From IMG/VR virus record IMGVR_UViG_3300034196_000151: 47,465 nucleotides of DNA; one strand, 5' to 3'. Position numbers and translations under genes: made by a program. Position 1 is the first letter of the stretch. Each line of letters opens with the position of its first letter. The notes below the pieces were generated by a model, which did not search any database, was not told where the DNA came from, and saw nothing but the letters and a program-made list of their open reading frames with translations. This DNA comes from a virus. Its lineage: Duplodnaviria; Heunggongvirae; Uroviricota; Caudoviricetes. Positions 35,656 through 36,686 of this stretch are shown here, one piece after another.

Positions 35656-36264
35656 TTAGATTTTTTGAGTAGTATCTACATATTTCAAATAAGCGTCCAC
35701 TTTCTTTTGAACTGTGGCAATCGACTGGGTGACATCTTTGTGGTGTTCATCCCGTTGCAAGCAATGTTTAGGGAAGGTCATGGTAACGTTCAAGCCAATA
35801 GCTTCACCAGCAATACCACCAGCCCAGTCAGCTCCTGTTTGACCACCAGAGATAAGGTTTGTCAGCGGCCAAAACTCATGAACCTTAGCGATAACCATGT
35901 AAACCCACTGGTTCAAGGAAACTTGAAATTCATTAACAAACTTCGCTTCGTCCAACCGATCAAACTTTTGAGGCTCCGACAATTGTCCCGGTGCCCAAGC
36001 ACCAGAGAGAGAATAGATTCCATTACCGGCGACGTTCAAGGTCACAACATTGTGTTTTTTGCAGGCGGCATACAACATACGAGCCGCAACAAGAGGGTCT
36101 GTGCTCAAATGGATGGCGACATAACGATTACCGGCTTCACGTTTAGTAAGGCGTTCACCTGCAGAGGTAAAGTCTTCTGCGAAAGCGACAGTAAGATCTG
36201 CTGTGTGAGCATTGTGTACAGTTCTTGGCTTATACTGTGCTGACTCATGTTCGATAATTTTCAT
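35656..36264 (-). CDS. Circularly permuted putative molybdenum-carrier (SLOG) family protein
   Basis: RTVHNA..ADLTV, AGERLT and LNVAG motifs precede ISGGQTGAD, which is normally N-terminal. Confidence 0.7.
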   Translation of the reverse strand: MKIIEHESAQYKPRTVHNAHTADLTVAFAEDFTSAGERLTKREAGNRYVAIHLSTDPLVAARMLYAACKKHNVVTLNVAGNGIYSLSGAWAPGQLSEPQKFDRLDEAKFVNEFQVSLNQWVYMVIAKVHEFWPLTNLISGGQTGADWAGGIAGEAIGLNVTMTFPKHCLQRDEHHKDVTQSIATVQKKVDAYLKYVDTTQKI

Positions 36265-36331
36265 AAAGACACCCCTTTTTGAATAAAGATATTATACCAC
36301 AAAGGGTTTCAAATGGGAAATAAAAGGCATG

Positions 36332-36354
36332 AAAAAACCACCCGAAGGTGGTTT
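36332..36354 (-). terminator. Terminator of the tRNA-Leu/tmRNA-like operon
   Basis: AAACCACC-TTCG-GGTGGTTT followed by a T-run. Confidence 0.85.
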
Positions 36355-36361
36355 CTGTGTT

Positions 36362-36528
36362 TGGTAGCTGTTGATGGGGTCGAACCACCAAGTTAGGACT
36401 ATTTCATAAGCCTCAGAGTACGTGCGGCCTCGTCTGACTTACTATTTCATCTTCACTCTGCCTCCACATCCACGGTTTTTGATGTTTGCACGTATAACAC
36501 CGCCAACCGATCCAGTTTAGCAACAGCC
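36362..36528 (-). ncRNA. 167-nt tRNA-mimic RNA, candidate miniature tmRNA-like RNA
   Basis: Acceptor GGCUGUU/AACAGCU-A-CCA; T arm GGUGG-UUCGACC-CCAUC; 13-nt stemless D-loop with CUGGAU; P2-like GGUUGG/CUAACU; UAUACGU-GCA-AAC resume-like motif; 15-codon frame ending UAG UAA. Confidence 0.7.
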
Positions 36529-36542
36529 AGAAATCTTAAATT

Positions 36543-36627
36543 TGGTGCCCAAGGTCGGACTCGAACCGACACTCCTTTCGGAAGCGGATTTTGAATCCGC
36601 CGCGTCTACCAATTTCACCACATGGGC
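36543..36627 (-). tRNA. tRNA-Leu (CAA)
   Basis: GCCCATG/CTTGGGC acceptor; loop TT-CAA-AA; long variable arm; GGTTCGA; CCA. Confidence 0.95.
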
Positions 36628-36657: not shown

Positions 36658-36686
36658 AGTATATCAAGGTTTAGACAAAACTGCAA
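36658..36686 (-). promoter_or_regulatory. Sigma70 promoter of the tRNA-Leu(CAA)/tmRNA-like operon
   Basis: TTGCAG-17-TATACT. Confidence 0.75.

Follow-up and report, generated by a model that had tools for sequence, protein, structure and literature searches.

The question raised by this locus is what a 167-nt RNA with the ends of a tRNA is made for, and whether it is a transfer-messenger RNA (tmRNA), as was assumed in the original prediction. In the window (the whole stretch of DNA that was analysed, 47,465 nt), the gene lies on the minus strand at 36528-36362, starting 14 nt 3' of a tRNA-Leu(CAA) and followed by a terminator hairpin. The gene and its setting are composed of the following features.

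36362..36528, minus strand: whole tRNA-ended RNA gene (n=10 distinct full-length copies)
36543..36627, minus strand: tRNA-Leu(CAA), called by ARAGORN and Rfam, probably upstream on a shared transcript
36658..36686, minus strand: candidate sigma-70-like promoter TTGCAG-17-TATACT, 5' of the tRNA-Leu, from reading of the sequence and below the scan threshold
36330..36354, minus strand: intrinsic terminator hairpin and U run; the scan found the hairpin on the plus strand

The promoter site homologous to 36658..36686 reads TTGACA and TATACT in one relative (L287). The terminator was kept 3' of every RNA copy inspected, and the end of the tRNA-Leu lay 14 nt upstream in the copies inspected. No tmRNA match was obtained at the RNA with Rfam and ARAGORN, relaxed thresholds included, and a blastn search against annotated phages matched it by T-arm fragments alone. 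As judged from sequence comparison, the 167-nt RNA is a real gene, and it stands for a real RNA family absent from Rfam. The downstream gene (35656-36264, minus strand, 202 aa) has a weak match to Pfam PF12694 (cpYpsA, SLOG family) and its own promoter at 36319-36291; since its placement relative to the RNA varies, it is probably not the partner of the RNA.

This SLOG-family gene, together with DNA patterns, led to copies of the RNA on contigs of viral and metagenomic origin, the longest measuring 1.54 Mb. Ten distinct full-length copies were obtained, each of 167 nt, with an identity of 88-99%; they belong to close relatives, and double-sided changes among them may represent few events. The window copy was 93-98% identical to the RNA in three elements, while the pS of the neighbouring gene was 0.57, and on this comparison the RNA is under selection. 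The carrier is a giant phage-like element. The copy on a 290-kb IMG/VR contig was identical to that on a 1.54-Mb contig, so the 290-kb contig, which by itself gave 37 tRNA matches, is probably a fragment; the relatives L094, L112 and L129 sit on contigs of 1.54, 1.92 and 1.84 Mb. A covariance model of the RNA found no match in 100 tRNA-rich viral loci, further DNA patterns over viral contigs found a copy in the 290-kb contig only, and a DNA pattern over genome contigs gave 22 chance matches and no copy.

The RNA cassette was missing at this locus in several relatives, which fits the expectation for an accessory gene. Beside the SLOG-family gene it was absent in L132, L112, L114, L117, L128, L131, L285 and L286, and such relatives may carry it elsewhere in the genome. 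L132 (positions 1-180) retains the terminator and an apparent scrap of the RNA 3' end. An odd 77-nt tRNA with G3•U70 and A73 (alanine identity) was observed in L121 (1501-1577, minus strand; G001 129761-129837); it shares its T stem with the 167-nt RNA, has a non-standard anticodon loop with central UGU and no U33, was missed by ARAGORN and scored 29.5 bits with Rfam. One tRNA that ARAGORN cannot assign occurs in three relatives (L004:11816-11892, L080:1669-1746, L115:14918-14994) and is another possible non-decoding tRNA; its L115 version has C3-G70 in the acceptor and an anticodon loop of 6 nt. Short CCA-ended tRNA-like stretches that the tools did not call were also seen amid tRNA genes (L121:1727-1960, minus strand, and L115:11283-11340).

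The tRNA-like part of the RNA is made up of an acceptor stem, a T arm and a D-loop-like segment.

36522..36528, minus strand: acceptor stem 5' strand (G1, G2, C3, U4, G5, U6, U7), invariant in 10/10 copies
36362..36372, minus strand: acceptor stem 3' strand, discriminator A73 and CCA, a Leu-type end, invariant in 10/10 copies
36373..36389, minus strand: T arm of 5 bp with canonical loop, variation at positions 59 and 60 only
36510..36521, minus strand: D-loop-like segment, GG then A, U, nearly invariant

The acceptor pairs are G1•U72, G2-C71, C3-G70, U4-A69, G5-C68, U6-A67 and U7-A66, followed by A73 and an encoded CCA. The bases reported in the original prediction were thus read correctly, namely C3-G70 in place of G3•U70, the wobble G1•U72, A73 and a supposed tag ending in RVKMK. 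C3-G70 was found in 10/10 copies and G3•U70 in 0/10, which makes C3-G70 the family state among the sequences compared; G1-C72 was likewise absent, G1•U72 being present in 10/10. Homologs with G3•U70 had been named as the finding that would make this copy a decayed variant, and the variant turned out to be conserved: all ten distinct copies keep the acceptor, and therefore the window RNA is not a decayed copy. None of the 18 acceptor and CCA columns varied, compared with 45/167 over the whole RNA (p ~0.002, which is indicative, the copies being related), and the T-stem bases were invariant in 10/10 copies. An alternative 8/4 acceptor/T register is possible, as G8 can pair with C65. A 3-bp D-like stem is tentative, with its 5' strand in 36510..36521 and its partner at 36460-36462, and one U-G/U-A exchange preserves it. 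The D-loop word is of Arg type (15 of the 17 viral tRNAs bearing it were tRNA-Arg, among the matches listed). The RNA has no U8 for U8:A14 and no U8/R9 connector.

The tmRNA assumption depended on an open reading frame inside the RNA.

36439..36489, minus strand: supposed tag frame, 15 codons and two stops, judged non-coding

From GCA at 36489 the frame reads ANIKNRGCGGRVKMK, then TAG TAA (36444-36439). Its pN/pS was 0.85 (1.03 in a three-element subset), a small sample, against 0.15 in the neighbouring gene. Eight of the 15 tag residues varied, and the variable columns were distributed over the codon positions as 6:4:5. The frame ends in KMK, KMKQ or KME among copies; the first stop was lost in one copy (L115) and the second in three, and some in-frame stop remained in all. 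The match to a resume-like consensus was 10/12 in the window (shuffle p ~0.05) and 7-8/12 in divergent copies. Nothing in these comparisons suggests selection at the protein level, and the frame was judged not to be a coding feature.

The same region is better described by two hairpins, which stand where a tRNA has its D and anticodon half and whose loops form a candidate tertiary contact.

36473..36509, minus strand: hairpin 1, with a 9-nt loop, holding the supposed resume codon and the first 'tag' codons; covariation
36391..36457, minus strand: hairpin 2, a long irregular arm adjoining the T arm on its 5' side; covariation
36488..36493, minus strand: hairpin 1 loop hexamer, candidate kissing partner by a putative 6-bp helix; invariant
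36420..36425, minus strand: hairpin 2 loop hexamer, candidate kissing partner; invariant, while the neighbours 99, 101-103 and 110 vary

In the fold overall, 94.6% of cells were paired, compared with 36-43% in slid controls, and four double-sided changes were found. Hairpin 1 (RNA positions 20-56) has a compensatory U-A/C-G change at 33:43 in four copies, by which the second 'tag' codon is changed from Asn to Asp. In hairpin 2 (RNA positions 72-138), the pairs 88:122 and 91:119 have changed on both sides with pairing kept, and 87:123 and 80:130 alternate between G•U and A-U; what reads as a TAG/TAA 'stop' change or an AUG/GUG 'minigene start' change is a base-pair exchange of this hairpin. It also contains a symmetric 6x6 internal loop (36443-36448 opposite 36400-36405), and AUG-AAA-UAG is present twice because the repeat faces itself across this loop. 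The GA/UA ends of the loop presumably resemble a loop E submotif. The two loop hexamers are complementary (RNA positions 36-41 with 104-109) and invariant, so that the kissing helix showed no covariation in the ten copies, and a 7-bp complement alone is at chance level (462/1000 shuffles); the loops of hairpins 1 and 2 probably kiss. Folding of the single sequence was no better than that of shuffles (z 0.38) and misfolded the T arm. RNA positions 117-133 could be taken for the remnant of a Phe-type anticodon arm, a reading that was set aside because it conflicts with the covariation at 88:122 and 91:119. Comparison of the copies shows a conserved, structured, tRNA-ended gene with neither an anticodon arm nor a selected reading frame.

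Some other readings have to be weighed against this structure, in which the RNA would be a decayed tRNA or tmRNA, a tRNA with an intron, or a carrier of two AUG-AAA-UAG minigenes. The loss of the RNA at the locus in several relatives, a relaxed ARAGORN call of a tRNA with an intron and a 10-mer present twice are in their favour. However, the RNA is strongly conserved, the intron calls differ among copies (His, Asp, Cys, Leu), and the minigene repeat is the symmetric internal loop, where AUG/GUG, Lys/Glu and stop/Gln changes follow base pairing. The decay, intron and minigene readings are already largely refuted and were given very little weight.

To judge the tmRNA assumption, nine one-piece viral tmRNAs found by ARAGORN in the viral loci examined were taken as controls. 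All nine had G1-C72, G3•U70, a UCGA D-loop, GAC 5' of the T stem, a length of 309-401 nt and tags ending in AA. G3•U70 has been reported in all ssrA genes (PMC3968760), and a single Carsonella lineage is the exception to a G-C closing pair in tmRNA (PMC4131195). Neither the UCGA D-loop nor the GAC connector occurs in the 167-nt RNA. A tmRNA-type helix 2a, which would link the exit of the D-loop with the strand 5' of the T arm, would be 87% paired, with no double-sided change and with its middle pair broken in 4/9, and the local stems competing with it carry compensatory changes. No pk1 was supported in the RNA. The Rfam tmRNA model gave weak scores for ordinary tRNAs of the 290-kb relative and none for the RNA, and no SmpB gene was found in that relative, which is a fragment. 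The RNA does resemble tmRNA (RF00023; phage tmRNAs, the DS6A TLD-only RNA included) in its acceptor stem, A73-CCA, T arm, GG D-loop with little or no stem and long helix beside the T arm; it differs in having no selected tag frame and in being roughly half as long as the one-piece controls. We consider that the 167-nt RNA is very probably not a tmRNA. The premise of the original prediction was therefore given up except for the likeness of the tRNA ends, as the 'tag' is unselected and coincides with covarying stems, and the RNA lacks the motifs of the SmpB side. Its point about the degron holds in so far as the frame ends are of KMK type, but the frame was not shown to be a tag; being unselected and within covarying stems, it makes the missing degron mean little. 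There is little ground for the proposal that the RNA frees ribosomes and spares the product from degradation, since the tmRNA premise is unsupported. As a caution, an Ala-starting frame in a tRNA-ended phage RNA need not mean a tmRNA.

A miniature tmRNA of non-alanine identity, which rescues ribosomes with a stable, degron-free tag, would be the closest form of that premise. It could draw on the resume-like stretch (10/12) and on an open frame of 15-16 codons that starts with Ala and has an in-frame stop in all copies, and an identity-switched tmRNA was reportedly made in vitro by Nameki in 1999. This reading is very improbable, as the frame has a pN/pS of 0.85-1.03 vs 0.15, its resume codon falls within the putative loop-loop helix and a covarying stem takes up the codons that follow, the TAG/TAA variation is a G•U/A-U pair, pk1 is lacking, the length is 167 nt vs 309-401 nt in controls, the 290-kb relative (a fragment) has no SmpB, and all ssrA genes are reported with G3•U70 (PMC3968760). 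Still fainter is the chance that a leucylated or arginylated RNA binds SmpB, leaves the kissing fold on the ribosome and carries out a 167-nt rescue with a degron-free tag; if true, it would be the first natural non-alanine tmRNA.

Competition with host tmRNA for SmpB had also been proposed, and the RNA might act as a tag-less antagonist titrating SmpB, as the TLD-only RNA of mycobacteriophage DS6A does. It has been reported that DS6A-type RNA inhibits tmRNA whether it is alanine-chargeable or not (PMC4131195), and the largely stemless GG D-loop of the present RNA, like the long helix adjoining its T arm, would suit such a role. Yet the motifs expected for SmpB competition, the UCGA D-loop and GAC connector present in 9/9 control tmRNAs, are both lacking; a tmRNA-type helix 2a has no compensatory change and a middle pair broken in 4/9, and the Rfam tmRNA model scores the ordinary tRNAs of the relative and not this RNA. 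SmpB titration is thus improbable.

Which amino acid, if any, the RNA could carry was approached through its acceptor. Viral contigs were scanned for tRNA 3' ends with A69, G70, C71, U72, A73 and CCA, which gave at least 120 stretches; the viral tRNAs are not phylogenetically independent, and sequence kinship overstates significance. Among the matches listed, 65 of the 88 tRNAs with the full G1•U72/G2-C71/C3-G70/U4-A69/A73 end were tRNA-Leu and the remainder were 8 Met, 8 Glu, 4 Ile, 2 Arg and 1 Phe, whereas for the remaining A73 tRNAs of these loci the share of Leu was 86/600 (14%; odds ratio 17). Met was not enriched (8/88 with the end vs 59/600 of the other A73 tRNAs, among the matches listed), and viral tRNAs often had G1•U72 (170 of 1015 that the pattern had not selected, among the matches listed). 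From the enrichment of Leu and the frequency of G1•U72, we infer a normal working end, mostly that of tRNA-Leu, and not a damaged alanine end. The viral tRNA-Leu with this end are identical to the 167-nt RNA in the first four pairs, discriminator and CCA, whereas the RNA is without the U8/R9 connector, A20a and anticodon arm and has an Arg-type D-loop word. Of the 65 viral tRNA-Leu ending in this way, 30 had no long variable arm (L165-L284, among the matches listed).

It has been reported that E. coli LeuRS requires A73, A15-U48, G18G19, A20a and D/T-loop contacts, and that it charges tRNA-Leu truncated of the anticodon and variable arms (PMC9976931). In the 167-nt RNA, the candidate bases A73, G18/G19, U54:A58 and A15-U48 are present and invariant, their tertiary contacts being only presumed; position 20a is U in the first register and A in 2/10 copies in the second. 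LeuRS is the best synthetase candidate, as had been suggested, given that Leu accounts for 65/88 of the viral tRNAs with such an acceptor end (among the matches listed). For ArgRS, the elements A20, G2-C71, C3-G70 and A73 are present; ArgRS also reads C35, and ACG occurs in both hairpin loops, which are apparently paired with each other and not at tRNA distance. MetRS depends on the CAU anticodon (PMC9976931), which is in neither hairpin loop. The proposed resemblance to the elongator tRNA-Met acceptor is accordingly real for the bases, which match the MetRS acceptor set, and fails at the need for CAU and the lack of Met enrichment. Mimicry of an initiator tRNA was set aside; G2-C71, C3-G70 and A73 fit the minor set of the formylase, but the major determinant, a C1xA72 mismatch, is absent. 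We place the chance that the RNA is uncharged or weakly charged a little below even. Charging with leucine is possible, with a lower chance, and leucine is the likeliest amino acid if the RNA is charged at all; arginine is unlikely, methionine or another amino acid more so, and alanine extremely unlikely, in agreement with the doubt about AlaRS in the original prediction, G3•U70 being present in 0/10 copies.

We propose that the 167-nt RNA is a non-decoding tRNA mimic acting as a decoy or ligand for tRNA-binding proteins. The tRNA-Leu and the RNA would be co-transcribed, and the RNA released by RNase P and 3' trimming. The kissing hairpin loops would lock the lower half, so that no decoding takes place, and the top half and elbow would be displayed to host readers such as a synthetase, EF-Tu or defence enzymes that target tRNA ends. 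Such a decoy or ligand would have no part in ribosome rescue. As a whole, this mechanism has in our estimate an even chance of being right. Phage tRNAs have been reported to counter tRNA-targeting defences (PMC11555353), which makes a decoy plausible.

The main alternative to a decoy is that the tRNA ends are only a frame for processing and stability and that the function lies in the kissing-hairpin body, for example in protein binding at the symmetric internal loop or at a conserved single-stranded linker. This agrees with the conserved structured body of 120 nt, with its invariant loop-loop complement and conserved symmetric internal loop, and with T4 RNA C, which has the same layout despite a different, mismatched acceptor. 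For a mere frame, pair swaps would be expected, yet no acceptor or T-stem base varies among the ten copies. The invariance of the acceptor, T stem and D-loop-like bases suggests that a protein reads them, which favours the decoy or ligand over the processing frame, and the latter was considered rather unlikely.

The RNA could also be efficiently leucylated, either to carry its amino acid into a process other than decoding or to sequester EF-Tu or LeuRS. It has the Leu-type end, A73 and candidate A15-U48 and G18G19, a class II-like long arm beside the T arm and a constant linkage to tRNA-Leu, and removal of the anticodon and variable arms leaves E. coli tRNA-Leu chargeable (PMC9976931). On the other hand, A20a and U8 are absent, no acceptor enzyme was seen nearby, and no class I Ile/Leu/Met/Val synthetase was found in the 290-kb relative (a fragment). 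Efficient leucylation with such a role is thus unlikely, and the preferred reading remains the non-decoding decoy or ligand.

Among known systems, the closest in layout is RNA C of phage T4 (rnaC, species 1 RNA; AF158101 70908-71046), which was compared together with five Tevenvirinae relatives. Papers on RNA C report late expression and still call its role unknown (PMC9697503, PMC3014915, PMC12685909). RNA C and the five relatives have a weak 1:72 pair (a U·U mismatch), U72, no G3•U70 and a T arm, with A73 in five of the six members; a strongly covarying hairpin lies beside the T arm, and the loop-loop helix has one compensatory change. Like RNA C, the 167-nt RNA presumably belongs to a phage tRNA transcript and has an acceptor and T arm and no anticodon; both RNAs also have a pair of hairpins whose loops are complementary, with hairpin 2 abutting the T arm on its 5' side, the kissing being putative in the 167-nt RNA. 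They differ in length (167 nt vs 139 nt in RNA C) and in the acceptor, which in the 167-nt RNA is of 7 bp, fully paired and Leu-type with an encoded CCA, and in RNA C is of 8 bp with mismatches and a CCA that is not encoded; the second arm of the 167-nt RNA is longer and has the symmetric internal loop in addition. The covariance models of the two families miss each other; the likeness of the 167-nt RNA to RNA C is therefore one of layout and not of demonstrated kinship. Y RNA identity was set aside, since the ends of the 167-nt RNA are a CCA acceptor. The Lak megaphage tRNAs with 'enigmatic introns' (PMC6784885) and the allo-tRNAs (PMC5389517) are likewise oversized or irregular tRNA-ended RNAs of large phages. 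In contrast to the former, the 167-nt RNA has no insert-free allele and no consistent anticodon after removal of an insert, and unlike it, the latter retain a decoding arm. RNA C is an abundant RNA of T4, and an unrelated giant element is here seen to keep the same layout under strong selection. With its clean, CCA-encoded leucine-type acceptor, the 167-nt RNA makes the charging of anticodon-less phage RNAs, and the host protein that they catch, testable.
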